64,000 nt of DNA, from positions 33,232,001-33,296,000 of the forward strand of contig CM060731.1 in assembly GCA_030704615.1 (NCBI GenBank), written 5' to 3'. This document shows, in pieces, positions 4,753 to 30,300 of the stretch. The position numbers and the translations under genes are program-made. Position 1 is the stretch's first letter; each line of letters begins with the position of its first letter. Below the pieces are notes generated by a model that had not been told where the DNA came from, did no database searches, and worked only from the letters and a program-made list of their open reading frames with translations. Origin of the DNA: Takakia lepidozioides (taxonomy: Eukaryota; Plantae; Bryophyta).

Positions 4753-5131
4753 GCCTCTCATTTTAAGATAATAGGGTCTTCAATGGGCACGTGCAATGTG
4801 GCCGGTGGGCCCCGCGCACGGACGCCCGGCTCCCCAGCACCCCGCCCGCCCCGCCCGCCGCTGTGCGCGGTCGACCAGCCGCGGGCGCGGCTGCAGCAAC
4901 CGCGCCCGCGCCCGCGCCCCCGTCCGCCACGCGGCTAGTCCCCCGCCCATGAGTCTGCTGGCTTCCAGTCTGCCCGCCAGTCCGGTGCTGGCCAGTCCGC
5001 TGCCCAGCAGTCTGCCAGTCCGCTAGTCTGCCAGTCTGCCCGCCAGTCCCCTGCCATCCAGTCCGCTGACGGCGCAGGATCGCCACCGTCCATTCCCATA
5101 ACCCATCCGAGCCCTCCATTTTTAGGGCTGC
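4753..5131 (+). repeat. MULE left terminal inverted repeat (~379 bp, GC-rich)
   Basis: Reverse complement of 16785-17137 with a few indels in the CAGTCYGC repeat block. Confidence 0.95.
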
Positions 5132-5275
5132 AATTCAAACCTGCATCCCTGCCGCCTGCCACTTGCCAGCAGCCGCGAACGTGCGCACTGTTCTCCTGGC
5201 ACGTTGTCGATTGTGTCTTGTACTGCGGCGCGTTTCTTGCATGTTCAGAAGCGTGTCCTTTGTACTGTATAGGGC

Positions 5276-8200: not shown

Positions 8201-8646
8201 ATGGTGCCGGCGGCAACGACGAATCCAATCAGTTCATGGAAAGACATCCTCCGGACGACTTCCCCTACGACGAGGCACCTCTGGAGGTCTCAGCCTCATT
8301 GGAACAAGAATTCGCGGACATACTTCGCATTGTAGGTGATGACAAATACCTGGAGGCACATGCCCGATCTGCTCTTCATATGTGCAGAGGGCAGCTCGTT
8401 GATATCCTGGCAAAAAGTGCGGCTGGAATGTTGCACCCTGCGGCAGCGAAGGCTTTCCGTCCTCTGAACGACAACAACAACATGTCTCTGAAAAGGAGAC
8501 GAGATTTTGTGGAGGCCTGGAAAACCCGGCCTAGGGTTTTGCGGAGAACCAGCAAGAGGGTGTCTGCACCTACACCTGCAGCACATATATACTCAAAAAT
8601 TCGCAAGGTTTCAGGTCGTGTAGATGTCACGAAGAAGACAATATAA
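5276..8646 (+). pseudogene. MULE transposase (DDE + SWIM zinc finger), 4 exons, disrupted
   Basis: Exons 5276-5598, 5724-6458, 6698-6897, 7392-8646 joined by GT-AG introns in consistent phase. Motifs: KRGCQCCF..YYNNMEH (WRKY/FAR1-like), CDATFGTN (D1), FIVDDA (D2), LCLWH (CxxH), DTNASIEAYH (E), SWIM CTCPWAMKGNLCKH. In-frame TGA at 6220-6222 and a frameshift in the T-run at ~6291-6298. Confidence 0.9.
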
Positions 8647-8856
8647 GTCTGCAATGCCTCGAAAAGAGACAAGGTTTCACGTCGTGTAGGTGTCACGGAG
8701 AAGACAATATAAGTCTGCAATTCCTCAAAAAGAGACAAGGTTTCATGTCGTGTAGGTGTCACAAAGAAGACAATATAAGTCTGCAATTCCTCGAAAAGAG
8801 ACAAGGTTTCATGTCGTGTACGTAACACAAAGAAGACAGTATAAGTCTGCAATTCT
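8605..8856 (+). repeat. 66-bp tandem repeat, ~3.8 copies, overlapping the transposase stop codon
   Basis: Unit AAGGTTTCA(G/C/T)GTCGTGTA...AAAAGAGAC starts at 8605, 8671, 8737, 8803. Confidence 0.9.
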
Positions 8857-9400
8857 TCTGGTAGCATTGTCCCTTTCTGAAATACAAGTCCGCAATGGAC
8901 TAATGCACAGTCTCCCAACGGACTCCTCTAGTTTCCCAACTGACTCCCACACAGTCTCCCAAGCATAGTCTCCCAACGGACTCACGCACAGTCTCCCAAC
9001 ACAGTCACAGTCAACAGACTGCAAGCGCCAGTAAGCCAGTCTGCTGATCAGTCTGCTGCCCACTCCAAAACTCTGCTCACCACACTTCCACCTCATCCCT
9101 GCAACTTATGCCAATCCAGCGTCCCAGCGGACTCATGGACATGGTGCCTCCCAGACTAGGTACCAGACCCAGCAGTCCTAGCCTCGGCAGCGTACTGCTC
9201 GCACATTCAAGCTCAGCAGACTCGGGTGCACAGTGCATGGAAAAATTGACACCATTGTGTCCATTGAGTTTAGTGACAACATTACAAAACATGCCAGCAC
9301 CCACAGTACACAAAAGTGCTCATCACCACTGGAATAGTAAGCGAAAAGACTCGCATTTTTTATTTCGGTACATAGACTTCACAGGACAAGTACATCATAC

Positions 9401-12400
9401 TCATGAGAGCAGTTTCTCTACATTGTCCAACCCCCGCACGATATACTGGGCACACTGCATTCGCTGCCCAAGTGCAAACTTGAAAGAAAACCAGTCCTTC
9501 GTGAAAGGTGTTCCTCTCTCTGGCTTTGCAGTCTTGGAGACATTTGCTCTGACTTTTACCCACTCATAAAACACTTGAATGAATGACATGACGTAAAAGC
9601 CACACTCCCAGCTGAATGGTTGCTGGGGCACATCAGGCGCGTGGAACTGAAATGCTTGGACAATCTCATGCCACTCTGGTGAGTCCATCGAGTACCCTAA
9701 GCACTGCGCATGAAGCTTCCGAATCCACCCTAGAACAAAGGGACATTTATGCAAGTCCCTGATAGAGTTCAGGTGAGTGTAACAGCCCTTGCGGAGGTCG
9801 ATGATACAAACACTCCAGTGCCCCCTGCAATGGTATCAAACAACATGGCGTCATTGCACAATCATGATGGGCAGACTCAGCAGACTGACACTCAGGAGAC
9901 CGACCACCCAGTCCACTGCACAAATACAAAGGTCAACTTAATCGCTCAGAGTCAAGACGACACTGCGAAACCAGACTATGACTCAGGAGACAGTCTCAGC
10001 AGACTCAGAAGAGTTCTTACTCGTCCCCAATTGGCACCAAAATGAAATGCACTCTTTCAAGTCCTTGCCCAGTCGTTCAGTGCTGAGGCAACCTTTCAAG
10101 ACCTCCAGAAGGCTTTCATGTTGCCCCACCCCCAATGACTTCAACACCGTCCACGTCGACGTTGGAAGAACAGCAATAGTGTTGGTGAACGCAGCCTCAA
10201 CCGACTTCTCATAGAATCGACACCACAGCTCCAGGAGTCTATCTGTGCACTCCGACTCAACCTTCTGGACCGCCTTTACGTCATCCGGCGACAGTCCGCA
10301 TTCAACCGTGGGTCCCCTTCAAAAAACATCAGCATGGAATTACCCGCCTTCACGTGCAGAGCATGTGCTTTGCCAAACCGAGCACCCATCCTGCACAGAG
10401 CAGACCATCCTTCTGGAAGCCTCATGTACTGAACAGACTGACGTCAACATGGTACCAAACACTCTACAGGCTGAACAATTCATCAGGCTGACAAGACTTA
10501 CCACAACAGACAATGATGAAACCAGCAGCAGACTGACCAGCGTACAGACTGACCAAAACAGACCGCAAAGCACTTAACGACAAAGACAGACGAGGAGACT
10601 GAGCACAGTACTCACCTGTGCTGCTCCAGGAAACGACCCACATCTTTGTCCATGTCCAAGGCCAGCTTGCGGTTCTTGTTCATAAAGACGTCAGACTTTT
10701 TCTTCGCCGGTCTCTTGGTACTCGGACCCTCCTCGACCTCCTCAGCATGGTCCACGACAGTCCGCTTCTTGGCTTTGCCTCTCCCCTGGGAAGCAGGGAC
10801 AGCTGTAGGCGGGCTGGATAGAGCAGACAAACGCAGCGCTGCCGCCCTACTTCGCAACAGAGGCTGGTCAGCAGGTTTGTTTACACTTGCTAGACCTGTC
10901 TTTGCAGCTTCGTGGGTCACATGCGTAGAACTGACCCGCGCATCGGGGGGCGTGCTCACCCCCACACCTTTGATGGTTGTCGATCCCACGTTTGCAGCAT
11001 GGGCGGAAGATGTCATGTCCTCAGAAGTAGACAGTCTGCCGACAGAGGGACGAACATCCTGTGAGGATACCGAGCAAAATGTCGAATTAGCCCAATTTCA
11101 CAATGTGCTAAAACATAAACAACAGTGCTGAAAGAGGAAATGGCACAACCTGCCCAAGGGGTGAGGGAGCAAACTCCATGTAATCCAGCGCTATACCAGA
11201 CGGTGTTTGCGCCGCATGTGGTTCCTTGTCAGTGTGTCTGCCAGCATGTTCAGTCTGTTGCTCAATGTGGGCAGTCTGCTCGGCCGCCGGTTCTTCGTCA
11301 GTCCTTTTGTCTGTGAACTGTGCAGTCTGCTGGCAACTCTGCGGTTCAGTCTCTTCCTCAATGTGGGCAATGTGCTCGGTGGCAGGTTGGTCGTCAGTCC
11401 TTCCCTCTGTGAAGTGTGCAGTGTGTTGGTCAGGCCGTGCAATCTGAACTGTGCAGTCAGAGCTGAGCTGTGCAGTCCGCCGCTCCGAGCCATCCTGGTC
11501 AGTCCTTCCATCTGTGACCTGTGCAGTCTGCTGGTTAGTCTGCGGTTCGGTCTGCTCATCAATGAAGACAGTATGCTGCCCCACCACAGGTTGCATGGCA
11601 GTCCTTCCATGTGTCCACTGTTCAGTGTGCTGGTCAGTCTGGTGGACAGCCGGCTGGGTGTTCGGATCTCCATGGACTTGGGAATCATCAAGAACATGTA
11701 TGGAAGACCCACCGGCAATTGCTTCCTCAGACTCTTTTGTAAGATCTATGATACGGTTTTGCGTTCCCAGATTGAGTTCGGTCATCACGTAAGACTCATC
11801 TATGGCTTTCGCCACTGAGCGCACGAAAACGGGACTAACCTGGAAGGTCATAGAAGGCAGGCCACGGGGAGCTGGATAAGAATGCTTTACTGGTGACCTG
11901 ATGACGTTGTCAGTGAATGTGCCTGGGGGGAAAGTGGACTCGGTCAAAACACTCATACTGGCAGATCCAAAAACATGTTGTTGGGAACTCAACAGAAATT
12001 CGTCCACAGGGTCCCGGTGAGGCCAGTGCATCCGAGTCTGTTGCACAATCCAGGGAACAGACTGACTGTTAGTCTCCTGGATAGTCTGCTCGGCCATATA
12101 CTGAGTGGGTTCACCAGTGTGCTGCACAGTCTGCTGAGGGGCAATCTGCTGGCTGGATTCGTCGGTCTGCTGTACAGTTTGCTGAGGGGCAGTCTGGTGG
12201 CCATGTTCGCTGGTCTGCTGCACAGTCGGCTGAGGGGCAGTCTGTTGGCCGGTCTGTTCTCCGGTCTGCTGCAAAGTTTGCAAAGTTCGCTGCCCGCTCA
12301 GTACTGTTTGCACATACTGAGTATGTGTGTGCGGGGCAGTCTGCAGGGAGTGATCCGGCGTATTACCCGAGATGGTCTGGTGCACATGCTTGGTCTCCAG

Positions 12401-13860
12401 CACTTGGGCAGTCTGCCCACATCTCTCGTGGGGAATATGTTGTTTGACATTATTGTGGCCAGTCTGCTGGACAGTCTCCCGAACTCCTTGTAAAGCCAGG
12501 ACAAGGTCCCTTGCACCTCTGGCAAAAGAGTCGAAAGCAGCCTGCACTTGCTTGTCTTCCAGAACAACTCGCCCTGCAACACATGTTTATGCAAATGTGA
12601 AATTGTAAAAAAGTTGGCAAAGAAATTGAGCTGAAACACGAAAGTTGCCCATAACATTTTACCTTCCAAGAGATTTCCCACGAGGCCAATGTCCTTGATT
12701 TGCCGGCACAGGCATGCTCCATCAAGATGAGCAATGGCGCCGATGCGGTCTTCAGTTGGGATCCCACACCATAGGACTTTGAAGACATTGGGATTCTGCA
12801 AAACAATGTCGAATATTGCTCGCTCCATTACCAATGCAATGCGTCATCCACCACAAACTTTTGTGAATGGTCTGTTCCATGGAGTAAGTCCATCCTCAAA
12901 CTATGCAGATCCTTCATCAACTTGTTGTATGAGCGAAAATTGCAAAATTGCATCCATCTGTGTTGTAGGAAGGAAGCTGCCATGCGCTCAAAGTCCTCCT
13001 CAGTCAATCCGAACAAGTGTTTTCTTCGCACCCCAAAGGTTGGATGTGCCATAGGCATATGTCTGAGGTCTTCAGGCCGTGGGTCATCCATGAGAATCAG
13101 CTGCACAAGTAGAGGCGGCGCATTTTGGTCGTTTGTGGCTTCAATGGCAACAGCAGAGGCGGCTTCTAGAACATGGTTGGCTTCCTCAATAGAAAACTCC
13201 ATGGAATAATGAAAGGGTACAAATGACCATCGGCGGTCCGCAACAATCCGGTGGAGCTCATTATGCCAATCCAAATGGGGATTAATTTCTCCCACCCTAA
13301 GCCGGGGAAGTGTGAGGTCTTCAGCTCCGGGTCGAATTACCGGTGATGGCGATCGCCAAACTACAAAAAGCGCCGTGCTATGTGAGAGAAAGGCAGTCTG
13401 TTGGTAAGTCTGCTGGTCCGCAGTCTGTTGGATGACAAGACTTCCCATTGGCATGGGCTGCATGATGGGCTCCTGGAGAAGAGTCTGTAGGATAACAGGC
13501 TGCTCGTTGGGAGTCTGCTCTGTTGGAGTCTGCTGGATGACAGGCTGCTGAACGGGAGTCTGCTGGATGACGGCCTGCTGAATGGGAGTCTGCTGGATGG
13601 CAGACTCGGCTGTCCCAGACGCATTCCCCCCCGACGCATCTTCAATATGTAATGCCGCTATAGCAGCAGATGACCCAGGATACTTCAATAATATGTACAC
13701 TCGCACGCGGTCCACTTCCGCATGCACTACAGTCGCTTGTAAAGGAGCATCATTGCTAGGTATCCGCCAAACCTAAATGGCCCTACGAATATAAACACGT
13801 TCATCCTGGTATACGGCAGAGAACTTCGACGTCAGGAACATGGACGTGGACTCTATATTC
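9401..13860 (-). pseudogene. Ulp1/C48 SUMO-protease-like multi-exon gene of the MULE with long Q/T-rich N-terminal region, degenerate
   Basis: C-terminal exons read ..RVHFILVPIGDE | GHWSVCIIDLRKGCYTHLNSIRDLHKC..APDVPQQPFSWECGFYVMSF (His, Asp, Gln oxyanion and Cys motifs of C48 peptidases). Upstream ORFs 10612-11016, 11108-12547, 12828-13727 have QQT repeats and an NLS-like KRPAKKK. Stops and frameshifts in the ~10020-10310 exon. The 5' exon structure is uncertain. Confidence 0.75.
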
Positions 13861-14137
13861 ACCTCATGCAGCGGACTGGACTCACAGACCAGCAGACTGT
13901 AACGTGTGTACGTAGGGTGGAGGCAACTAGTAAATTATACCAGTGGACTGGACCAGCGGACTGACAAACAGACTTAGTAAGTAATGCAGCGATATAAAAC
14001 AGACTAACTGACGAGCGGACTGAGCCAGCGGACTGAGGAGAGAACGCAGGGGACTGACCAGACTGAATAGGCAACGTGACCCCGATGATAGACTCAAAGA
14101 GCACAGAGAACAAACTGGGCGGTCAGACTGACCATTA

Positions 14138-15097
14138 CCTCCTCTACTTCATCATCGTCATCTTCATCTTCAAAGCAGTTCAACTAGTTCTGTTCCGCCT
14201 GTCGGATTAATGTGCATAGCAGACCTGACTGGGCAACTCTGTAGAAATAACGGAAGAAGTCAGGATCCCCAATTGGTGGGCACTCTGGTGGGAAAAGCCC
14301 AAAGTCAACAAGGCGCAATGTGCCAGGGCAAACTGACCCTTCAGTGCTCTACTGAGTTTTAGGTTTTGACCCTAAACCGATGGCATGGGTCGCGATATTT
14401 GTGTGAGTCTGCTGCCGAGTCTGGTCAGGCAAGTCAATGTCCACTAGACTTGTCACCCCTTCCAGGCCCTGAGCAGATTCACTTTCAGTATCAGTACTAA
14501 TGGTGTGGGTCTGCCGCCCAGGACGCGGTTCAGTCTGTTGCGTGGATTTTGCCCTTGCCTCGCGAGCAGACCTTGCAGCCTTTTTTTTTTTTGCCTCTCC
14601 TTTTTTTGGGCCCCATCACTCAGTTTACGTTTTCTGGGAGCGTCCATCGTTCCCTGCACTTGCAAATCCTCCATTGACGGGCCACCACAATGGACGCCAT
14701 ACCGTGCGCGCACTTCGTCTAATTCCAAAGTGCGGGGGTCAAGCACTGATCCGCGCAAGCGCATTGTGGCCTCTTTGACAATCGACATTTCTTTCAGTAT
14801 CGGCCAAGGCTTGAAATCCCGTGGAATCATTGCAACAGTCTCCTTGCAACCCGTGTCAACACAATGCCGATTTAGTTGGATTTTGTCCTTGATTACCTCT
14901 TCACAGAAGGGACAGAAGAGCTTGTCCTTCTACCAATTCGAGTTTTTGGGATTCCGGGCGCGGAGGTCTACAAATGCTTCCACTATTTTATGATCAAACT
15001 CGTCTGGTGAGTACCAGTACCTTTGCTCCTTCTTCAGTCTGGTTTGGTGCACAAAATCCAACCAGTCCGCTCCACCTTTTTCACAAGCATCCTCCAT
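14138..15097 (-). pseudogene. Zinc-finger/NLS coding segment inside the MULE (separate gene or first exons of the Ulp1 gene)
   Basis: MEDACEKGG..NW*KDKLFCPFCEEVIKDKIQLNRHCVDTGC..PRKRKLSDGAQKKERQKKKR read through one TAG at 14930-14932; acidic exon EDEDDDEVEE ending at a GT donor at ~14137. Confidence 0.5.
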
Positions 15098-16784
15098 CAC
15101 TGCAGAATGAAACGAAGGTGCAAGGACAATGAGCGACAAAGCGACAGATAGAAGTCCTATGAAAAGACTCACCCTAAGCAAGAAGAGGACACAGAATGGA
15201 TTGGAAACACCGCAGCAAGTGAGAACCTCACCGAGCCGATGAACTTCGAGTTGTTACGAAGGCGAGCGTGTTTGCGACGCTTCGCGGCTCACCGCGACTC
15301 TCCACACCTGGGGAAGAACGGTCGTCTTTCGTTACGGTGATGGAAACGCAAAGAGGAAAACAAAGCAGTGCAAAACTGTGCGAAGAAACAGGCGCGAAGA
15401 GAATGGAGAAAGTAGAAGTAGAAGGGGGAAAACGGGCATGGCACTGCCAACGTGGCGCGATTTCACAGGCGCGACCTATCTGCCGTCATCGCATTGAATA
15501 CGTCCACCGAACGAACGGATCGTACTAAATTCATCCACACTCCTTGCAAGTGCAACAGACTCATTTCCCATCGGGCCGAGAGTCCACCGGACCGCCAGTC
15601 CAGCGGACTATTCGCTTTGCTGAGGCGAAGCGGCTTCATATTGGAGGAACTTCCCTGCCAGCGGAATGAAGACAAAAGAGAGTAAGGGGAGAACAGGAAA
15701 GTCGAACACACCCATTGCAAATAGACTCGCGGCACAACAGACTGATGCATGCACAGTCCAACAGTCTGATATCCATAGAGGAGAACTATCCAGCAGACAG
15801 ACGTTTCGCCAGACTGGCGGGAGAACAAGCCAAAAGACTGACCGAAGGGAAAATAAGAAGTCAAACAGACTTAGTGCAACAGACTTCCGACACAACAGAC
15901 TGACAAATTCACAAGTGCAACAGACTGATATCCCAACAGACGGACTTCCAGCAGACCGCCTTCAAACTGACTGTTATGCACGCGATAAGGGGAATATCCG
16001 GAGCACTGACGGGCCAGCGGACCCACTGTGAACAGACTCGCGACACAACAGACCTCAAACATCCACGCGCATTTGCAGATTGTCTCAGACATCTCTCGTC
16101 GTGGCTCAGACATCTACATTCAGCAGGTGCGTGTGGATGTTTGAGGACCTTACGACTAGATGGTGTTCCGTGACGACTCGAATTGTTTTTTTGTGCTGCC
16201 ATCCCTTATATAATACCATGTGGATCCATCACAAAGCTGGGTTTCTTCAGATTCTCCACCCTTTTCCATAACTTATGCACGACGGATGCAAGCCGCTATA
16301 CTTGGTCACATAAACAGTCCCATCGTCCGATACGAAATCTGCAATACACGCCCCCATGTGCATACGCTTCCACCATTTTTGCAGCCCATGTTACCCATGG
16401 GTTCCTTTAACGAACTAACTTGTGAAGGCTCTCATGAGGGATGCAGTACGAAGGGGCTAAACGTATCATGACGGATCACAAGCATAGGACGTTATCGACG
16501 ACAGATGTCCGCATTTTCCATATTTATGACATAGAACCAAACCATGAAACGAAGGTTCCTGAAAGCACAACAAGAAGGCAAAAATAGTGGAAGCATATGC
16601 ACGATGGTGGCTGTAGTGCCCAGACAGTCCTCTCATGTTCAAGCACACGCTTCATCATCATCATGAACATCGCGCGCAAAAGAAGAACAATCGCGTGCAT
16701 GGAAACGCCTACCGCAACATCGGACAATAAACAACCGTCAAAAGAGAGCGGCCGGGATTTGGTGGGAAGATCATTGCCATTTTC

Positions 16785-17137
16785 GCAGCCCTAAAATTGG
16801 AGGGCTCGGATGGGTTATGGGAATGGACGGTGGCGATCCTGCGCCGTCAACGGACTGGATGGCGGGGGACTGGGCAGCGGACTGGCAGACTACTGGGCAG
16901 CGGACTGGCCAGCACCGGACTGGCAGACTGGAGGGCAGCGGACTCATGGGCGGGGGACTGGCCGCGCGGCGGACGGGGGCGCGGGCGCGGTTGCTGCAGC
17001 CGCGTCCGCGGCTGGGCGACCGCGCGCAGCGGCGGGCGGGGCGGGCGGGGTGCTGGGGAGCCGGGCGTCCGTGCGCGGGGCCCACCGGCCACATCGCACG
17101 TGCCCATTGAAGACCCTATTATCTTAAAATGAGAGGC
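16785..17137 (-). repeat. MULE right terminal inverted repeat (~353 bp)
   Basis: Inverted copy of 4753-5131. Confidence 0.95.
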
Positions 17138-18692
17138 GTGAATTGAGGTGTATATGTGGCGTAATTAAAATGATTGACAAGACATGCATACAAAGTTCAC
17201 ATTTATAAATGGAGTAATGTGGCAGATGTAATTTATATGTCTTTATATTAAAGGTTTTCACAATCGTCCTCAAACTGGTTATTATTAGATCATATTTGGA
17301 CAAAAAAATTAATATCTCCATGTAAATGTGGATCATCTAAAGCGTATTGGACAGATCACAAACTAATCTATTTAACTTTCAAACTTCTCGATTTTGTCAA
17401 TCATTTTATGTTCCGTGATAATTCATTATGAACAATTACATCATATTTAAACACACAACGTTTCATTTTAAAATAGAACATCATTCATAATCACTTCAAA
17501 ATTAAGATACAATATTATTAGCCATAACATCATTTCATAAAAATTTATATCAATAAAACAAAGGCAGGGCCTCCGTGTATCTCACACCTTGTTGGTAATG
17601 ATTGTGGTATGATGGATTCCTTGAAGCATTTGAAGATATGATTTTGGAGTGTATTGAGGTCATATTGGAGAGACTTGAGGCTGTGAATGGATTTCTCCAC
17701 GCACACTAATCTGATCCATCTAAGAAAAAAATCATTAGTGGTAATAACGAATGTCAGACTAAGTTTATTAAGGTCCATGAATGGTTCTCTATATTAACTA
17801 CATAAAATTAAAAAATTGCATACATCACAATCTTCCATTGTTTAGGATGAATTTAGGTGAAAAATTAAGAAAACAAAGTTCATATTATTCCAAAATAAAA
17901 TTATCAATAAAATGAGTTTTTTTAATTGTTTGACTATCAATAATAAAAAATAACTCTAGTGAGGGCACAAGGTCGCCTGGTTTGGCTGGGTTCAAAACCT
18001 CAAAAGGTGTATACTGGACCTCCCATTATTGTAGCAAACCAATGTGGGAAAAAAAGGTCATTGGTTTCAATGATCACCTTATTCTTTTGCCAAACGCCAA
18101 GGCTTTGGAGTTGGCCCGGTCACAAAACATTGGCAATAGTCTTTTTGGAACAAATTTGGGCAGAAGGAGTCAATGTCTTTTTATCTTTTCATTTTTTAAT
18201 CTTAAGTTTTTAGTCACTAGTAATGATGGTAGCCATGAGAATCATAATCCAAAAAAGGAATGGAAAAACAAACAAAATATGAAAGAAAAATTCAGCATTA
18301 ATAAGAGCATACCTTTAGCCTACCTTATTAATGCAAAAGATATCAATAGTATGTATTTCAAAAAAGCATGTAGATAAAAAGAGGGCAGTATGCAAAGAGA
18401 AAGCGTCTGGCAGTTCCAAGAATCTCTGAAAGAATTGCTTGGACAACTTTTCTTTTTCAGTTCCACAGGGAATTTGATTAACATCAAATTCATTAATTCT
18501 CCAACCACCATGATCCCACCAGATGCCTGTCACATCTGGTTGTTCTTGACTTAGTTCCCCAGGATGGTCGCCAAATGTCGAGCAACTTTTACTCACCCAT
18601 CCCTTCGCTATCCGAGGAAGGAACTCCAAGATAGAAGAGTTGGATATCTCTAAGCACTCAGCCCGCTCAGAACAATCAGTCATGACCTACAT

Positions 18693-19320
18693 CTAGTGTA
18701 TCATGGTAATGCTTTTTGTCTCAACTGTGGCACTAAAGATGATGATGTCATCAATGTAGCACCGGGCGAAGTCTAGCCCTGCAAGAATCCTATCCATGAC
18801 CCTCTGAAACTCTGTAGGAACATTCTTCAACCCAAATGGTAGGAAGCGCCATTGGTACAAACAATCCTTCCCATGCTGGTCAATCCCCCATAATGTCATC
18901 TTTTGCTTGTCAACCTCTTTGATTGGCAACTGGTGATAACTCAATCGTAAGTCTAATGTGCTAAACACCTTCGCATGCCAATGACATCAAAGATTTCTTC
19001 TAGAGTTGGCATGGCATATCTATCAGACTTAGTCTGACGGTTCACAGGACGATAGTCCTATACATCCTTCTTTCTGTCCAATTGCCATAGATATCATTCT
19101 TACCTTGCATCGCCATGACATACTCCCCGCCTGACAACTCCACGAATCCAGCTTCGAACAACTCCATAGTCCGTGACTGGATCAAAGACCTCTCCATGTC
19201 ACTATATCTGTAGGGCCTTCGAAAAATTGGCGTGTCACTTGTCAAATCAATACGAATCTCTAGGCCCTTCAAGCTCCCCCAATCCTTCAAACCGAAGGCA
19301 AGCAATTTCTATAAGCCCTT
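18693..19320 (-). pseudogene. gypsy reverse transcriptase fragment
   Basis: PIFRRPYRYSDMER..; YAMPTLEEIFD; FSTLDLRLSYHQL..LWGIDQHGKDCLYQWRFLPFGLKNVPTEFQRVMD..CYIDDIIIFS; several frameshifts. Confidence 0.92.
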
Positions 19321-19789
19321 AGAAATCACCGGATCCTCCGTCTCTCTCCTCCGGTGACTATAGGTCCAACATCCGGTTCCCAATTATCCTCAGTGACTAC
19401 AATCTTGGGTACACCAGGCTTGGAGGTAGGAGACGCATCATTTGGTTGCTAGATAGCAACTTCTTGGGCCTTGTCCGCCCACCCAGACTGTGGCGTAATT
19501 TGAGAATATCCTCAATCTCTTCAAAAACCTTAGCCACCTTGGCCTCCAACTGATCCTCAATGTATGGCTCTCCCCACTCCTCATATTGCTGCTTGAGAGA
19601 TCCAATGACTCTCTCTTTGCGCATCTCATCCCATATCTGCCATGTGTGTTTGCACCCCATGTTCTTGTGCTCGTCCCCACTCATAGCCTCCACCATCCCG
19701 GTTGGCAGAGATGGTGCAATATCCAATGGAAGTGCAGAAGTAGCCACCATGCTTGAAATCTCCATTGCTCAGCCATGCACAAGCCAATG

Positions 19790-21000
19790 ACCCATGTCAA
19801 ACAATTTAGATCCAGTGCTTGACCCAACACCTGACGTCGTGATGCATCTGACAGAGCTGACATAGCTATAGTGCCCGTAGCAAACCCCATTGCCCGCTCT
19901 CACTCATCCGCACTAGGCTCCACCAATTGCTGTAGCGTGTTGTCCCAAATCAATCCTGGACCATTGTCTTGAAAAGCATGAGACGAGGGAAAACTCATGA
20001 GTGTAGGCAATGCCGCACGTGGTTGCCCAACTCGATTGACCACCGCCAAAGGTGGACGATCATCATGTCGCACTCTCTGTGGTTGCCTCCCTTGGTCCAA
20101 AATGCCCTCAACCGTGAGGTTGGGTGACCGTTGAATGGAATCATAAGCTCTCTTGAGCAACTCTGGTGGTGTGGGATTGGTCCACCACAACCTAGGCCTA
20201 TGTGCCCGTGAACCCACTACAGCTGCATCCAACAATACAGCTGGTCCAATCCATGACTGGATCTGATGCACATTGGCCATAACCCTAGCCCGAAAATCCC
20301 CCATGAGAGGAACATTCTCCAGGATGTAAGCTGGAGGTTGCACTTGCCTTACCTGTAAATCACGCAACACTTGCAACATCTCCCAAAACAGATGCGATCG
20401 TGCATCATGCAAACCATTACCATGACCTGCGGGAGAATGTCCTTGGCAAGGCCACCCTCCTATCACCAAGTCAATGGGACCATGCCGATCCAAATCCTCC
20501 GCCCCCAGCATGGTAATGTCTGCTGACACGGCCTTTTGATACCCTTGAATTGCTGAGAGAGACAACAACTCGAGATACCGGTGTGTGAGCAAGATGATGT
20601 GACGCATGGAAATACGCCGAGCAATCTCATCCTTCTCCACATACAAGTACTTGTGTACTTTAATCCCTGCTTGCAACACTCCTGCAAGCCCAGTGTTCAT
20701 GCCTCCAAATAGGTCTAGCAAACAAATCCCTGAGTCGGGCGGATGCCAGGTGATGGGCACTGTGTCCAAAGAAGCTAACTGAGGTGGTCCAGGTGATGTC
20801 ATTGAACTCCCCTCACTCATCAATGGAAAGGCCTCATGCCCTGATTGGTGCACACACTTGTCTGCTATTCGCTGCAAATTCCCAACCGTACCCCACTGTA
20901 GAACATGCACAGGCACATGGAGAAAAAACTCAACCTTGTATGCCAATTGTTTGTCCTCATCAGATGGTGGCCTATCATCTGCATGGCTATGGCCCTCCAA
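19790..21000 (-). pseudogene. DNMT3-like C5 cytosine DNA methyltransferase domain embedded in the gypsy pol
   Basis: Motif I LLDLFGG, II YVEKD, III ADI, IV LVIGGWPCQ (catalytic Cys), VI YILENV, VIII RAHRPRLWWTN. After a single TGA at 19900-19902, motifs IX/X follow in frame: ERAMGF..SRRQVLGQALD. Motifs VIII-X resemble DNMT3 (AHRARYFWGN; ERVFGF; RQRLLGRSW). Confidence 0.92.
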
Positions 21001-21287
21001 GAGCTCACCACCCTAAGCCACCATCTCTGAGAATGCAGCCAATGTGGGCATCATGTTCATATGATCCATCCTATATTCCCAATAAACCGCACTATGAGCA
21101 GTGCACGTCGGCCATCCCCTGATTGCCATTCCGGCCTATAGGACGCCGTTTCCTCCCAAAAGTCCAGAATAAATCCCATTGGGTATAACACAGCCCCACC
21201 AACAAGCACATCATAGGACATTGCGTATGTAACAATGGCTTTAGCTCTCATGATTGAGCCGTCCGTAGGACGATCTGACTGCAATCG

Positions 21288-22038
21288 GACAGTTGCAGGG
21301 TTGAATGGACCAAAAATGACAGATCCTGCTCCATGAAAGTCCATGACCAAAAACAAAAAGTTGATGATACTATCCCAATTTTTTTTTAATGATAGATAAT
21401 GGTATACTGAACATATTTAGTAAAGAGTCCTACCCCAAATATAAAAGATATAATTCATTAAATATTTTAGTCTATTATTTAGAAAAATTATGAAAAAACT
21501 AAAAATTAGAGTTTACAAAAACATTTCAATATGACACCTAGCCATTGAAGATTATAGGTTTTTATACTTCTAGAAAAAAAATGACACCCAAAATCCAAAA
21601 AACAAGATGAGCTATGGACTTTTCAAAAAATGCCTATTTTTTTTGACATATATTAGTCCATATGAGTCAAATGACAAATGATTTTGCCACTTCAAATACA
21701 TATCTATGATGTGGACCAAAATGGCCCCCTTATGTCCAAATTTCAATGGAATTCACCAATGGCACATAGGAGAACTTGAGTCCATTGTAATTCCATTCAT
21801 TGCGGTAACAGTCCACAATGACGGTGTTCAAAAGTCCATAGCGGAGTCATTTCTTATCGGATTCATGATTAGAGAGTTGCTATGGGTACGTATTGAAGTT
21901 AGGAATCCTATGACATATATATTTTTTGGTTTTAATGAGTTAATTCAATTTCAATTGATGACACCATCAATTGCAGTCATCTAAAACTGTGCTGGTAACG
22001 TCCATTTTGGTCCAGTCAACCCTGCATTCACCCAATCG
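21288..22038. mobile_element. AT-rich MITE-like insertion splitting the gypsy protease
   Basis: Inverted repeats TGCAGGGTTGAATGGACCAAAA (21294-) / TTTTGGTCCAGTCAACCCTGCA (-22026). Direct repeat CAATCG at 21282-21287 and 22033-22038; removing the insert restores RHELFIRL|QSDRPT in frame. Confidence 0.8.
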
Positions 22039-22786
22039 AATGAAGAGCTCATGGCGTGTGATCCCTCGAGCCTTCTCTGAACCACCCAAAGATGTTTGAA
22101 TTTGGAAATGGCAAGGCTTCAAGTCCGCCTTAGTAAGACCCAAGCTTGCAATTGCTGCTCTCCATAACATCAATGGCTGTGCTCCTGAGTCCAACAAGAC
22201 CCGCAATGGCCTTTACCTCCTCGTGGTTGGGCCACCCAACTGAAACATTTCATCCTGATTGTCCACCAGGACTACTCCATGAGTCACCATGTTACGCTCG
22301 ATAGCTGGCCTAGCTGGCAACTCTTGCAACCGTGCAGCTGCCGCTTGCCATGGCGCAACTGTGGCTGTCTTTACCCTTGAATCCAGGGCATCCATACACT
22401 GCATCTTATCCGCTATCCCCGCAGATAGTGCCGATGCATCACCATTCTCACCGAGTCTAGCTGCTAGTCTGAACACAATAGCTGGTCGAATCCCCGACAT
22501 TGCAATGGTCATCGCACAAAATAATGGAGCTTGATAAACAGCCGTAGCCGCCCCCAACAGTGTACTTCTTGTACCTTGACTCCCAGTAATATCTACTGGC
22601 ATCCCCCAAGCCATGCCAACTCTCCCCAATGGCACTCTTGGCTCCATCTCTGACACACTTGGACGAGCCGGCACCATCGATGGTGTGGTTGGCACTGTCT
22701 TGGCTAATGTGAAAGATTAGAGAAGCCTTGTCTGTCGACTTGCTTCCCCTCTCTATGGATCAAAATCCACATCCGCTCCCCTTGGC

Positions 22787-24323
22787 TCAGGAGCACAAGT
22801 TGCTGCTCGAGTGACAATAGCTGCAGAGTCTACATGCAATGGCCCTGTAAGTGCGGCTCCACACATGAAGCCCAATCTGGTCTACTCTAGGCATATGAGG
22901 TTGTACTGCAAGTGGAGCTTGAACCTCAGGCCTTAGAGCTGGCGCAACATGAGTAGTGGCCATGGCAGCAAGATGTTGCTCTAGCTGGGCAAATCTATCC
23001 ACCATGCCTTGGTCATGACCTTGACCCTGACCCTGTGCTCCTTGGTTTTGGTTATGACCTCCACCACGACCTCTGCCTCCTCTACCTCTCTGAACTACAT
23101 TGCCTCGTCCTCGGCCACCATTGCTCCCTTGGAACTGGCCTGGCCATAGTTTAGGATGCAAGTCATAACAATGGGCCTCCTCATGCCCATACTTGCCACA
23201 ATGCCCACACTGTAATTGTGTAGGCTGTGCCTGTGTCGGCCTTTTGGCTCTCTTCGGGCAATCCTTCTTAACATGAGGTCCTCCACAATCCCAACAAGTC
23301 ACACCCGACTGTTGTTGGCTTGAGAATGAAGGAAGAGACCTCTGCATCTGAGATCCTCTCTCTCCTTCCCTGGGCTTCGCCTGAGCCCCCTTGTTGTCTT
23401 GAACACATTGGGGTAGTGGTTGTTGTTGGCTAGGAGCGCCACTTCGTTGTGTCTCCTTGCCAAACCCTACCATGACCACTCGTTCCTCCACCATATTGAG
23501 CTCTATCCCCTCTGCCAGCAAAAACACATTTGCTAAGGTATGTTGGTTCACTTGTAGGAGAGTTGCATCCCGCACCCTTCTCCTCAGCTCCTTGTCCAAT
23601 ATCCCATACCAGAATTGGACTGCCTGAGCTTCCGTAACCCCTGGGTTACATTTATCAAGCGCCTCATGCGAGTGTAAGCCTCCTCAAACTCTCAGTAGGC
23701 CTCCGTTGGAACTCTTGCAAGCTCCGCAACTTCTCTGTCCTTATCCCTTGGTAGTTTTTTTTTCAACTCCTCGAACAATTCCACAACTGTGTTAAAGGCA
23801 GACACGGGTGCTGGTGCTGCAGTAGGAGCTTGAGTGGATTTTCCAGCTCCTGTACCACTTGTCCCACTACTAGTGCTTGCAGTTGGACATGTTGGTGTAG
23901 TTGCTGGTGTCGCCGCTGCCCTTGTGCCTCTAGTGAGCTATGGATTGCGCATCTGCTGCAAGTCACACCAACTGCCAAACTCCTGTATGAAATCGTCTAG
24001 CTCGATGATGCCCACAGCTCCAGAGTACCTCCAAGGCCCCTTGGTAGCTCCATACATCTCATCCATCGTATCCCACAACAACGGCACGGAAATAGCTTGT
24101 ACCTGCAGCGTGGAGCCCTCAGAATCAGAATCAGAACCTTCCTCAGAAGACACAGAAGATGACCTGAAGATAAAGATGGCCTAAACCGTACTCCTTGTCT
24201 CGTGTACCCACTAATATCGATAGTGCTCGTACCGGCACTTCCCTCATCAACTACTGGCACTTCCGTGATGAAAACTCGCAACCACACCTGTTGTAAACCT
24301 GTCTCTAATCCCTCTTTCCACAA
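22787..24323 (-). pseudogene. gypsy gag with two zinc knuckles and RGG-rich tail
   Basis: ORFs 23997-24323, 23938-24153, 22787-23599; CX2CX3-4HX4C motifs; GGRGRG repeats; frameshifts and stops. Confidence 0.8.
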
Positions 24324-24529
24324 GGTAACCGGATAGAGAACCTGTTGTAGCTAATGGCTTAGACTACTAGGTTCATAACATAAACCTGTACCTGCACCTG
24401 CATCCATCCACCGCAAGCACTCCTATGGTCTGCTAGTCATCAACCCAGCCTCACCATAAGAGAACAATGATGGTCTGACTGGTCATCACCCCAGCCTCAC
24501 CTTTGACAACACGCTCTAGGATTGGCCGG

Positions 24530-27353
24530 TGATCAAATCCGGACCAACCTCCTATGAAAACAAGCGCCCACACAAAACTGACATGGCGCACAGTCAAGCA
24601 TGCAGGTGTGGAGAGGATCCAAACACAAGAAAATCAAACAGTAACTCCCCCACACCAAAAACACTCCACAATGTCGCTCCTGCAAGACACCCTAGCCCAA
24701 ACCCGGACTGACTCTTGCCTCCACCTACGGAAAGGTTTTGGCCTACAGAGAGGGTGGAAGACTACAAGGAAGAGAGACTAAAGAAATTCCTATCACATCA
24801 TGCTCTCATCCCACTACCCTATCTCCACATTCTCTTGCTTAAGCAATAGACAAGACCTTTCAAGGATCTCTCAAATAACTCTCTAAGAGCCCTCAAGATG
24901 TCTCTCAAACAATCTCACTAAGGTTCCCAAAGCTTGCACAATGGTACTCCAAACAGTACACCAAGGCCCCAAGAGCTTGCCAAATCTCGGTCCTCAAGGA
25001 CCCGAAATAGTCCTTCAAAAAGTCACCAAAGTCTCCTTAAGCTCACCACATATCGGCCTTCAAGGACCCCAAACAGCCCTCCAAACAGCCTTCCAAAGGC
25101 TCCAAAAACTTGCCAAATATTGGCCTTCAAAGACCCCGAATGGTCCTCCACATAGCCCTCCAAAGGCTCCAAAAACTTGCCAAAACTTGGCTTTCAAGAA
25201 CCGCAAATAGTCCTCCAAACAATCATCCAAATACCTCTTCAAGAGCTCTTCAAAGTGGCTTACAAAATATCCTCAAAGTGTCTTCCAAAAGCTCCTCAAA
25301 GGACCCCAAAGATCCCCCAAACAATCCTTCAAATGCCCTTGAAAATCCTCCAAAAGCCATATATTGTCCTTATATGTCACTATGTTCCCAGCCTACAATG
25401 ACCGTTCCTATCGGATAATTACCGTTTCTATTGGATAGTTACCGTTCCCATACTATAGTTACAGAACTTCCCAACCTATAGTGACAGTTCTCAACCTATA
25501 GTTACTGTTCCCATATTATAATTACTGTTCCCAACCTATAGTGACGGTTCCCAACCTATAGTTACTGTTCCCATACTATAGTGACCATTCCCATGAACAT
25601 GGGGTTTCATGTGCATTCCAAGCTAGGGTTTGGGCTTCCTTGAGCTTCATGTTTGCTCTCCTCAAGCATCCATGACTTCTATGAGATACCAAGGCAAACT
25701 ACCTCGATCTTCTTCACCTCAAGCCTCAACTAAGCCTGGTTCCATCTCACCTAACAATGCATTTGTCACACAACAAGCTTTACTTCTCTTTAGAGCTCAA
25801 GAATCAAGTTTTTTTTACCTCATTTGACAAGCAACGAAGTCTTGCACTCATTCATGTGTTCTTCTTTGGCCATGCACACACATGCTCCACTCTTGGCTTC
25901 TATGTGTTGTTTTTCCAAGCATCAATACATCTCCATCTTATGCAAAGAGGAATATTCAAGTCCTTTCACTTGCTACCTCAGGAGTCGTGCTCTCCTCAAG
26001 CTTAAGGTTGAAACCCCAACTCAAACATGTGTTCTACAAGTGTTTTTCCTTCACCTAAGTGGGAACCAACCCTTTTCCTTCCTTCTTGCTCTCCAACGCT
26101 TGAAAATAGAAGCCCCAATGGGCTAAAAACATGCTCCACATAAGCATCACCTCATACACAAAAGAATGAACTTGTTCCCTTCACCTTCTAGCTCTCCTCA
26201 AGCTTGAAGTTGGAAGCCGCATTTGGAAAGCATACTCCACATATGCGCCACTTGCTTGGTCAACCACTTGCTTCACCAAGAGCAATCCAAGAATTCATAG
26301 AACTAGCAAAAACACTCCCTTCTAGCGCCCTAGCTTGCTTGTTTTTCAACCAAATGAAACCCCACTTGGCTTCATTTCACACTTCTTAGCTTCTCTTGAG
26401 CTACTCAATGCTCCTCAAACTATCCTTGTTGTACTCCTTCTATGCAAGCATGTGCCACTCTTTGGCTTCTCTTTCATACCATGAACAACTAGAGCTTGCT
26501 CTTGAAACCCTAGTGTCAATCTTCTCCACACACAAGACGCTTCTCTTGTGATGCAAAAATTCTTTTCCAAACTCTCAAACCCTTGGTGCACAATAATGCT
26601 TCTACAAACCCTCAATGCATTCTTCTCACCATAGAAGCCACTTCCTTGGCAAATGATTGTCACAACACTTGAGATACAAGAGATGACGTTCCTTCTTTTC
26701 AAACTTTCAAACCTTTTGCTTCCACACACACAAGACTTTCTCCCTGCAATACTTGCAAAGTCTTGTAACTCAAAGAGCTATCTCCTTGAACTTTCCACCT
26801 CCTTGATGCAATGCAAACACACTCTCCCTTGCAACACCTTGCAAGCCTTGTGAGATACTTGAGTTTTTCCTAGCTCTCTCACTCCTTGGTGTACACCAAC
26901 ACAAGTGCTAAACTAATCCTTACACTCCGCATTCACAAGAATAAGGTCATCTTCTTGTAGTGATAATGAAAGTGAACTGCACAATGGAAACACTCCACTC
27001 ATGAATCCACTCAATCACATAAACTAAGTCAAGCCAAGGGCACCTTTGCTAAAGAAATCCACCCTACAAAGCCCTCACCACACTCCCTCTCAATACCTAG
27101 AGCTATGGAGGTGGGAGAGGCTCATGTTGGCTCAACTACAAGAAGATGAGCCCTCCTCAACCCTCACAAGGGGAAAACCCATCCCTATGTCCCAAGTGAG
27201 GCTTGACACCTCACTTGGCATATGAGACCAAATGAAGTCCCAAAACACAAAATATAAATATAATTATCTAAAATGTCCTAGTTAATTAGAAGTAGGTAAT
27301 TCTAGTTAACCATGACTAAAACCATGACAAAGTCAACGACCTGCACCTTTACA
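24530..27353 (-). mobile_element. Probable LTR/leader sequence of an LTR retrotransposon (may or may not belong to the DNMT-gypsy)
   Basis: Minus strand begins TGTAAAGGTGCAGGTCG at 27353 (LTR-type TG start); non-coding, strongly strand-skewed, with internal low-complexity CCAAA/CTCCAAA blocks. No second LTR copy in the window. Confidence 0.35.
25399..25593 (+). repeat. ~20-bp tandem repeat, ~9 copies
   Basis: Consensus ATAGTTACYGTTCCCAACCT / ATAGTTACTGTTCCCATACT repeated head-to-tail. Confidence 0.8.
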
Positions 27354-30300
27354 GTAAAGCCCAAAATCTCCATATGACATGTTATATGCATTTTGGCTAT
27401 AGCCACCCAAGTCTTGCAAGCGTGGCGTTGTGATTTCAGTAGCACCAAAGTCATCCAAAAACACAGGCAGAGAATCGTTCTTACCTTGGGACCTTGCCAA
27501 GGCCGCCTGGAGTCTATGACTAGTATTAAAATCACTCTAGAAATCAGGCCAAACCACGAAGCGCAGGAAATCGTTCATATCGTGGGAGAAGCCCATAGGG
27601 TCACCCTCCTCGTTACGATGACACCAACTGAGATTCTCAGCAGCCTGGCGTCGTCAGAGGTAACAAAATTTTGCAAAAGCAGGGAATGCATGCCAGTTGA
27701 CTCGCGCAAGATGTTTCAAGCACAACAGGTAATCCTTGTTCAGAGCACCCATGAGTTTTGCTACTTGCTCTGGGCTTGCTCCCAAATCCCTCGCCCATTG
27801 AGCTATGGTTTCACTTTGCAGACCTAATCTAGTAGGTGTTGGTGGAGGCAAGTCGTCTGAGCCCATATCGTATCTCCTAAGCCTACTCTCAACAAAGCAA
27901 GACACACTACATGGAGAAATTGAATGCTGCAGAGCTTCGGGAAACAATGCAAGTAAATGCTAGCGCCGAAACGAGGGACACAACAACATGAACCTACAGC
28001 ACTATGCAAGCGAATGCAAGCATGAAGCCAACATCAATGAAGGCGTAGGTGCCTCAAGGTATAAGGCGATGAAGGCTACCCGAAGCCAATAACACCAAAT
28101 GCCAGCGGCAAAAGGAAAGTGCACGACAAGGAGGGCATCTGCAACATGCGAGCAACAACGACAACCTGCATACACGGGGAATTCTCTTGCGCGGGACATA
28201 CACGACGCGAGACGAGGAGAGGAGAGAGCTCGCGGTATTCACGGAAGCAAAATATAGGAAACGGCAGGAGATGGACCCCCTCGGTTTTTGCCCTAAATTG
28301 CTAAGCCAGGTCGAACCATACATCTCTTCACTGCCCTAGATGAACATATATAAATCTTGGCAGATTTTGCCAAGCACTGAGAGAGAGATTAAAAAACAAC
28401 CAAAATCAAAAGCTCAAAAGGGGCTCAATGGGCCCCTCGGGGTTAAACAACAAAAGGTGGAATTTAATTCAAGGTGATTTCCAGGACATCGGTTGCAAAT
28501 TATGCCAACATATGCATATCTTGTAGACATATGTAAAATCAAAAGAGATCAGTTAGGAAAATTGGTTCCTAGTCTCATAGTCCGACTGTGAATACCACCG
28601 TTTCATAACCGTCTGCAAATCCAAAATCTTGCGTCTATTGACAACCGACTTATGCATCCATTATACGGTCCACCACAAAAAATGACTTAGATTTATCGTT
28701 TGAAGGTTGACTGTCCACCTTTCAAAGTGCAGGGCGTATTTTATGTTGTTTGCCCTCCAGATGACGACTACGGGTGTTAGATAAATGAAATATTAATTCT
28801 CAAGGATTACTCTAGGGACCTTGAAGGACCAGTGACCAGTGTGGTAATAATGATGATAGCTTGTTGCCGTTTCTTACAAATAAATAAATACAATTATTAT
28901 TATTATTATTTAAGAACATGGGTTATAACCCTGGAAATATATTAATAGGAAAAAGGAGATACAAGAGGAAAAAAAAGCCTCTGGGGCGTGAAGGCGTGAG
29001 ACACAAAGGGAACATCCCGGAGACTAACAAATAGAACGACATAGGCTACCCTAGAGGTCGCACTTTGGCCTCGACATAGGAGACGCACTTGGATACATCG
29101 GAGATCTTGCACTTGGGAAAGGTCTGCGATTCAAATGTCCAATGTCATCCAAGTCCAAGTGCATCAATATATGAAGCAACCCATATCTAATCATTTTTTT
29201 TTCACATAGCCTACGACCAACGGCAGAGGCTACCCTAGTATTGATGAAATAAGCAAATTGTTCATTCTCTTTTTTTCTTAAAAGAATTATTTTGGGGAAA
29301 AAAATAAAACCCCTGATTATACCATGAGACACACTCACCATAGTCAAGAGCCGTCTTTATATGGACCTTCACTCCAGGGTTTACTAATATATGCGTATAT
29401 GCCTTCTTGTTGCTATCACTTTCCTTAAAAACAAATTCTGAACTACTGGGACAAAGAACGTTTCTGGGATTTGAGCTCAGATACGTAATTATGTATAGTT
29501 CATTATAAAAAAAGAAGCTACATCGTAGTGGGAAGGGCATTAGTTATTGTGAAAAGTGAAGTGGATTATTACCGACAAGAAGTTGCAGTAAATGTTATAG
29601 TAGTGGCGCTATAATGCTCTAAAAGACCGTGTACCTTGGTCTGGGTACCGGCCGTCTCTTACTCGTTGCGATCCCTGTTGGTGAGGGATTCGGAGGTAGG
29701 TCAGCGATGAATTGAATTATAGATTGCACTGCGCCCTTGTAATTTGGCGTCCATTTCTCAAATCTGAGGTGTTAGATTGAGAGCGTGTGGGGGGTGGGAG
29801 GGAGGCGAAGTTGGATGTTATTTCAGACTTTAGTTCTTTGCATTGGACTTGTTTTTTCTCGGCCTCTCTCCCCGCTTCTGTATCTCGGCATGGAAGGTTC
29901 TTGGAAGAGGAAGGAGGAGAAATGTAGGCGGGGTTTGTGCACTTAATGAAGCATATGTCCGGTCACGTGCTTGTGTGGAATCTGCCTCCCATGGTTTCTC
30001 TTTTGTTTATGCAAGCAAAGCAGAGGAATATGAACGCATGACGCTGTGTTCTTGTATTAGAGTTGTCGGACTCTCGTCTCCTTTCAGGGATTGATACATT
30101 CGTCACGAGCACATCCCAGGTTTCCGGCAGCTTAATCTCTCTTTCTTAAAATCTCAAAGGCCTGCATTAACCTCAGATTGCATGGATGGCACTACTTGTC
30201 CTTTGGTGAAGAGACTCAGAATTTTCGCTATATCACAATTCGATGCCTACTCGCGAAGCCCGATGGAACTACAAAGTTTGAACTGTGATAAAAATGTGGC

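Follow-up and report, generated by a model that had tools for sequence, protein, structure and literature searches.

We analyzed a window of 64,000 nucleotides of the Takakia lepidozioides genome (Bryophyta; GenBank assembly GCA_030704615.1, contig CM060731.1, positions 33,232,001 to 33,296,000; all coordinates below are those of the window). Its minus strand hosts a decayed element whose sequence supports its identification as a Ty3/gypsy-type retrotransposon, with a DNMT3-like cytosine DNA methyltransferase (DNMT) domain integral to it between the protease (PR) and the reverse transcriptase (RT). In the clade of this element the methylase appears to end the Gag-protease frame, and RT, RNase H (RH) and integrase (INT) would come after a stop codon of the readthrough type. 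We consider it probable, though far from certain, that these are leaky-stop elements in which the methylase is made at the level of Gag and acts in the particle on the element's own new complementary DNA (cDNA).

Translation, Pfam and tblastn searches of the minus strand between 18706 and 24066 returned the order Gag, two CCHC zinc knuckles, protease, DNMT3-like methyltransferase and truncated RT. The decayed Gag (23138-24066) was recognized by tblastn with residues 1-42, 146-172 and 187-360 of P0042, a Marchantia protein of 1281 aa (47-78% identity), and its true start probably lies about 150 nucleotides farther upstream than 24066. The zinc knuckles (23296-23258 and 23209-23168) are followed by the Gag-protease linker and the N-terminal half of the protease (22033-22836; Pfam PF13650, Asp_protease_2, E 1.4e-5; P0042 residues 439-694 at 44%), with the motif LLDSGAQ at 22197-22177, and by the C-terminal half of the protease (21081-21289; P0042 residues 691-761 at 61%). 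Further downstream lie the methyltransferase domain (19753-20775; 67% identity to P0042), the C-terminal tail of the Gag-protease-methylase frame (19452-19752), which resembles the tails of the first open reading frame (ORF1) of relatives, an in-frame TAG followed by CAA CCA (19443-19451), and the start of the second frame, with a linker and RT up to the motif YIDD (18706-19448; RVT_1, E 4e-15; residues 695-886 of the relative P0008 at 52-84%). The RT breaks off just past YIDD (18758-18747), and this copy has lost everything beyond it, namely the remainder of RT, RNase H and integrase. The order Gag-PR-RT is present in the window, and the full order Gag-PR-RT-RH-INT, with integrase last, in a relative described below (L007).

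All methyltransferase motifs named in the initial annotation of this stretch were found in their proposed places, on the minus strand between protease and RT: ICLLDLFGG (20727-20701), YVEKD (20643-20629), GGWPCQG (20460-20440), ILENV (20325-20311), HRPRLWW (20202-20182), a premature stop plus ERAMGF (19908-19882) and LGQALD (19827-19810). Motifs I to X, with FxG, PC, ENV and RxR all present, run in the unpermuted order that had been described as unlike that of DRM. Pfam recognized the domain as DNA_methylase (PF00145, E 9e-13) and, as also claimed, no PWWP/ADD-type targeting module on it. The assignment to DNMT3 was borne out by sequence and by fold. In a sequence search against solved structures DNMT3A was the best match (E 1e-10), with a bacterial enzyme at 2e-5 and DRM2 at 6e-4, and the closest solved relatives were DNMT3A/B/C. 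Foldseek was run with a predicted model (mean predicted local distance difference test score, pLDDT, 58) that covers the domain only up to the premature TGA, with its last 110 residues at low confidence; all 40 matches listed were DNMT3 entries (best E 2e-11, template modeling score 0.43). By sequence and model, the domain appears nearer to DNMT3 than to any of DRM, DNMT1 and the bacterial enzymes. It has the same catalytic fold as the DNMT3 and DRM enzymes of land-plant hosts, with DNMT3A as the best solved match. Unlike them, it is intronless, free of accessory domains and fixed in the frame of an element, and unlike DRM it is unpermuted.

The window copy is dead and serves as a witness to its family. 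The breaks that had been reported, namely a premature TGA in the methyltransferase (19902-19900, in motif IX), an insert in the protease and a truncated RT, are all there, and others add to them: several stops and frame changes in gag, linkers and RT, an indel near 19748 and, near 19500, a deletion marked by a dip in depth and loose contig ends. The protease is split by a 743-bp AT-rich, non-autonomous insert resembling a miniature inverted-repeat transposable element (21290-22032), with inverted ends of about 25 bp and an 8-bp target duplication (21282-21289 and 22033-22040, matching at 7 of 8 positions). Contigs from three of the four sequencing runs (X1, X5 and X7) join across this insert, which is therefore specific to this copy. 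Contigs of run X7 are about 85% alike to the window, and none of them covers 19420-19790. The methylase domain of the window is CG-poor (0.40-0.48). The best-supported rows do not show CpG-specific decay of the domain: only 4 of the 31 transition differences listed among them lie in CG context, which is below background.

Relatives of the window element carry the methylase in the same slot, which rules out a one-off capture. A search among longer proteins returned 34 matches, of which 17 are organism-named (14 from Marchantia polymorpha, one from Calypogeia fissa and two from Sphagnum). Among proteins of similar length, 13 of 99 matches are organism-named, comprising 12 from bryophytes, which adds M. 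paleacea, Riccia sorocarpa and S. tenellum, and one from Closterium. No vascular plant occurs among these organism-named matches (17 of 34 and 13 of 99). The named liverwort and Sphagnum proteins have the same layout as the window, in line with the extension of the system to land plants that had been proposed. In particular, P0042 is collinear with the window across Gag, protease and the whole methylase, and M. polymorpha holds several full-length Gag-PR-DNMT frames of 1278-1281 aa that are annotated as hypothetical genes (for example Mp4g09160, Mp5g06330 and MpVg00370). The methylase of the window is 65-67% identical to those of the Marchantia, Calypogeia and Sphagnum proteins (67% for Marchantia), 50% to that of L007, 37-38% to those of Closterium and 35% to that of Klebsormidium.

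A profile search of 50%-identity representatives gave 486 at E 1e-30 or better. Sorting 342 proteins by domain order revealed two layouts, with the methylase either after the protease (type A) or between RNase H and integrase (type B). Type A takes in records of Closterium and Klebsormidium nitens. The K. nitens record GAQ93235.1 (P0299) is composed of Gag, knuckle, protease and DNMT and ends 12 residues past the domain; its DNMT is homologous to that of the window and occupies the same slot after the protease, which agrees with the suggested kinship with Klebsormidium elements. At the DNA level, a genome scan returned two loci, one of which is a true relative (L007, CADCWO010000201.1:1-9285), a complete-looking retrotransposon on a circular contig with a 127-nt overlap and collapsed repeats. 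L007 is filed in a cyanobacterial genome bin, where this eukaryotic retrotransposon is very likely a contaminant. Scans of metagenome and viral contigs with a single protein or an alignment gave only six distant loci, at 27-45% over short stretches.

The DNMT tree was built from 161 of 205 rows, after leaving out domains shorter than 280 or longer than 420 residues and rows at least 88% identical to a kept row, and was midpoint-rooted without a host DNMT outgroup. In this tree, type A forms a group of 54 rows (Shimodaira-Hasegawa-like approximate likelihood ratio test, SH-aLRT, 98) that includes both the window and P0299, and the window falls in a group of 17 rows (99) with those of Marchantia and Calypogeia. 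One row labeled type A by rule, P0316, lies among type B rows, and no RT was found in it. In the RT tree (58 rows, all from DNMT-bearing relatives), the window joins the ten type A RTs in one group (0.95) and lies nearest to Marchantia. The agreement of the two trees indicates that the methylase descended with the element. A processed copy of a host DNMT3 was also considered and discarded: the domain has no target duplication of its own, it is collinear with P0042, and the RT and DNMT trees agree. Type B is the larger group, with RT-RH-DNMT-INT-PHD in one frame (P0029, P0094, P0282 and about 85 others) and a 107-row clade of its own. Among eight members looked up, the only named one is from the chlorophyte Scenedesmus sp. 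PABB004, and the one literature search aimed at type B elements turned up no paper describing them.

Conservation of the domain does not follow the neutral evolution that had been named as a possible refutation, as the residues of the active site hardly vary. Among the aligned rows, 158 of 158 retain the catalytic Cys and 159 of 160 the Glu of ENV, and the two arginines of motif VIII (RxR) are present in 156 of 159 and 155 of 158. Motif IV reads PCQ in all 15 rows of the bryophyte clade; overall its Pro is found in 75 of 158 rows, and distant members often have ECQ or DCQ. Between P0042 and a Calypogeia-like protein, identity is 79% in the methylase, 71% in the protease, 74-78% in Gag and 50-54% in the linkers; against the distant P0204 the corresponding values are 42%, 24%, 16% and 12-19%. 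Across the ten pairs compared, the methylase is at least as conserved as Gag and protease, except for P0008 and L007, where it ties with the protease. Window and L007 are identical at 0.60, 0.67 and 0.36 of the first, second and third codon positions, respectively. This pattern, which consists of identity figures rather than of dN/dS, fits long purifying selection on the catalytic domain.

The initial annotation had placed the methylase inside pol. Its slot between protease and RT stood, but a family-wide in-frame TAG (19451-19449) parts the methylase from RT. In the reading frame that holds the earliest RT motifs, this TAG, followed by CAA CCA, is the single stop from the deletion to the point where RT begins. 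The residues before it are EVAI, and the ORF1 ends of relatives read EVAV, EEVS, EGVA and DVAK. Contigs over 19420-19559 list no difference at a share of at least 50%, even though three runs, from two samples, cover the bin of the stop at great depth. In L007, an open Gag-PR-DNMT frame is followed by TAG CAA TCA and then by 1,047 open in-frame codons for RT-RH-INT-PHD; the first Met of this second frame (ORF2) is codon 117, beyond the conserved N-terminal stretch of RT. Both junctions fit the context UAG-CAR-YYA of the tobacco mosaic virus (TMV) type, which in the window surrounds 4 of 1,440 TAGs, the one at the junction included. Since the linkers flanking the stop are unlike between window and L007 and the six-base context is common to both, the context looks selected.

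We scored the junction in 37 relatives with Gag, protease and complete methylase, which represent few families with many near-copies and are not independent. Most of them (26) end 52-168 residues past the methylase without RT, three end within 27 residues, and one has a long tail without RT. The single gag-PR-DNMT-RT-RH-INT frame that had been anticipated is limited to two algal-side clusters of the tree. In the Klebsormidium-side clade all six rows (P0299, P0269, P0302, P0267, P0321 and P0335) end 9-13 residues past the methylase, and the frame break after DNMT may extend to these elements too. The stop lies inside a small predicted hairpin in both window (19445-19460) and L007 (3480-3492); downstream of it, strong structure is predicted in L007 (z -4.5) and not in the window (z -0.5). 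A -1 frameshift at the run G-GTT-TTT (about 19531-19525) was rejected, as the -1 frame stops immediately and no difference listed among the contigs at that position reaches a majority. The apparent frame offset near 19530 is due to the deletion of this copy near 19500.

In stable Arabidopsis lines, UAG-CAR-YYA allows 6-10% readthrough (PMC2754532). TMV-type (type I) readthrough has the same stop and six-base context and, likewise, a polymerase downstream of the leaky stop (PMC2754532); it has been demonstrated for RNA-virus replicases, whereas in this element it is predicted from sequence. A leaky stop between gag and pol has been called rare in long terminal repeat (LTR) retrotransposons (PMC3441728).

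The position of the methylase in the first frame, before this stop, suggests that it is made at the level of Gag. Most ribosomes would stop at the end of Gag-PR-DNMT. By analogy with TMV, some 5-10% of them, or roughly one in ten, would read on into RT-RH-INT, leaving the methylase about tenfold above RT and integrase. The element's protease would then free the methylase inside the particle, with many copies packaged in each. Concentrated with the new double-stranded cDNA, the enzyme would methylate it de novo before integration, and insertions would arrive pre-marked. The Dnmt3 domains of dinoflagellate retrotransposons do methylate CG de novo in yeast (PMC5890265).

Several observations weigh against this reading. 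When the Klebsormidium domain was tried in yeast, no methylation resulted, an outcome that the authors called inconclusive (PMC5890265). The coding parts of L007 are barely CG-depleted (observed/expected 0.73-0.84), and this slight loss speaks, weakly, against heavy CG self-methylation in each cycle. Seven of the 37 relatives continue into RT, six of them in two clusters and one as a Marchantia gene model, so that the leaky stop is not universal. The context of the stop is read in DNA for two lineages only, with Marchantia, Calypogeia and Sphagnum known by their protein ends. In the window itself, the deletion near 19500 prevents the frame from being traced from the methylase to the stop, and no LTR pair, primer-binding site, polypurine tract or target duplication of the element was found for this truncated copy.

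A first alternative, which we regard as unlikely, retains the leaky stop and has the methylase act mainly in trans in the nucleus. Its targets would be host chromatin or copies that have already integrated, and it would either hold its own family in check or reshape the regions of insertion. Expression at the level of Gag would go far beyond the need of one cDNA per particle, the integrase of intact relatives bears a PHD finger, of the chromatin-reader type, and both uncontrolled activity in trans and slowed transposition have been raised as options (PMC5890265). However, the domain has none of the PWWP/ADD-type modules that would target it, and the methylome of K. nitens is plant-like despite its elements. 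Fusion to Gag would be expected to carry the domain into the particle, which also counts against action in trans.

It is improbable that the domain is kept for another role, such as a methylase of the RNA genome or of an RNA-DNA hybrid, or a structural part of the particle that binds nucleic acid. The inactivity of the Klebsormidium domain on DNA in yeast (PMC5890265), the little CG loss of L007 and the ECQ or DCQ that distant members often have in motif IV would all fit such a role. Nevertheless, every residue of the C5 DNA mechanism is kept, PCQ is invariant in the bryophyte clade (15 of 15), and the nearest sequences and folds are those of DNMT3 enzymes rather than RNA methylases. We give very little credit to a second frame reached by splicing, frameshifting or internal initiation, with the CARYYA match incidental: gene models from Marchantia and Sphagnum (P0008, P0013 and P0031) join methylase to RT across the junction, the run G-GTT-TTT lies at about 19531-19525, and Candida Tca2 and Verticillium VdLTRE5 achieve bypass without CARYYA (PMC3441728), but the joins differ in place from model to model, as they would if the predictor were dodging a stop, the six-base context is common to two lineages with unlike linkers, and the second frame of L007 is exactly in frame.

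A wider picture, which we hold to be less likely than not, builds on the reading of a methylase that acts within the particle. In it, an ancient streptophyte lineage of retrotransposons is still alive in Marchantia, where its first frames appear intact, and persists in the host of the window in very many copies. The leaky stop would provide DNMT3 at capsid stoichiometry, the particle would be a methylation chamber, and the surplus enzyme would add to the host's de novo methylome beside MpDNMT3 and CMT.

Elements of this kind are already known. KnitGypsy-Dnmt3 of Klebsormidium nitens, a gypsy-type element with a DNMT, was described by de Mendoza et al. in 2018 (PMC5890265), and we take P0299 to be one of its copies. 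Like the window element, it is of gypsy type with an intronless, unpermuted DNMT3-like domain (PMC5890265). The two differ in that the authors put the DNMT in one ORF with RT and RNase H (PMC5890265), whereas an in-frame stop splits the window element and L007, and in that the domains are 35% identical, with the close kin of the window found in liverworts and Sphagnum. The text and readable supplements of PMC5890265 mention neither Marchantia nor Sphagnum. The same study reports other retrotransposon-borne C5 methyltransferases in Symbiodinium, SymbioDIRS-Dnmt3 and SymbioLINE-Dnmt, with de novo CG methylation in yeast shown for the DIRS enzymes; they belong to other classes (tyrosine recombinase and LINE elements, respectively) and represent independent captures according to its authors. 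EpiLTRs of Cymbomonas and Euglena are LTR elements with a DNMT, as in the window, but theirs is DNMT4-related and comes together with a chromodomain and an adenine methylase (bioRxiv 10.64898/2026.05.21.726589). For 'streptophytes (Gypsy-DNMT3)' that preprint refers to earlier descriptions, and its accessible text lists no land plants; a 2025 paper cites the elements as 'streptophyte', with no land plants named in the accessible part (PMC12344493). The accessible portions of PMC6317226, PMC11982613, PMC9940879, PMC12885004 and bioRxiv 2021.02.12.428880 hold nothing on such elements, and a full-text literature search, which covered few subscription journals, returned for them neither a report from land plants nor a leaky stop. 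The kind is therefore known from KnitGypsy-Dnmt3, and what appears to be new, as we found neither in print, is the range in liverworts and mosses and the readthrough-type stop between methylase and RT.

The role of retrotransposon-borne DNMTs has been an open question since 2018, partly because Symbiodinium and Klebsormidium are difficult experimental hosts. In Marchantia polymorpha, for which genetics and methylation mutants are available and which holds full-length frames, the question becomes directly testable. The leaky stop predicts a roughly tenfold excess of methylase over RT and integrase, and this points to a role per particle or in trans. In addition, studies of bryophyte methylomes may overlook candidate writers that are unannotated.

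The family is abundant in the genome. The contigs of one run match the unique flanks of the window without differences at a depth of about 50-63, and over the methylase the summed depth, which is not a copy number, reaches 60,000-78,000. We take this to indicate no more than a highly repetitive family, methylase included, with a copy number somewhere between hundreds and about a thousand. Repetitive sequence extends from about 18440 to about 27300, with single-copy flank below 18440 and single-copy contigs from 27303. It ends in a very high-copy piece (18440-18706), which has the highest summed depth of the stretch and which 40 contigs leave along other paths than the window copy. No twin of this piece was found in the 5' region. 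The piece may be either the 3' terminal region of the element or part of another element, and its lack of a twin would fit DIRS-like split repeats but also a foreign fragment. On the other side, the repetitive 5' region (24553-27300), with arrays of 67-bp and 20-bp tandem repeats, may belong to the element as its leader or as a long terminal repeat. The non-coding part of L007 downstream of its frames gave no alignment above shuffles with the window ends. Its leader does align: about 300 nucleotides upstream of gag, 27 of 29 nucleotides are shared with a hairpin of the window (24514-24552, minus strand; E 2e-5) that has a palindromic hexamer in its loop. The same stem-loop is predicted in both leaders (z -1.6 in the window and -2.8 in L007), and it is possibly a signal for RNA dimerization or packaging.

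The remainder of the window hosts several other features. A plus-strand host gene of more than 32 kb (30440-62700) has a UBR-box first exon, a match to the C-terminus of PRT6 and transposon-filled introns; a homologue search with its UBR-box exon 1 found none. A short high-copy repeat lies just upstream of it (28677-29578). Inside the gene are two decayed elements of the long interspersed nuclear element (LINE) type with endonuclease and RT matches (44400-48350, minus strand, and 55700-57650, plus strand), the 3' ends of which have several shorter dispersed copies. Finally, a 12.4-kb element at 4753-17137, with long terminal inverted repeats that are 94-96% alike and a piece of an Ulp1 protease at 9404-9835, is probably a Mutator-like DNA transposon.

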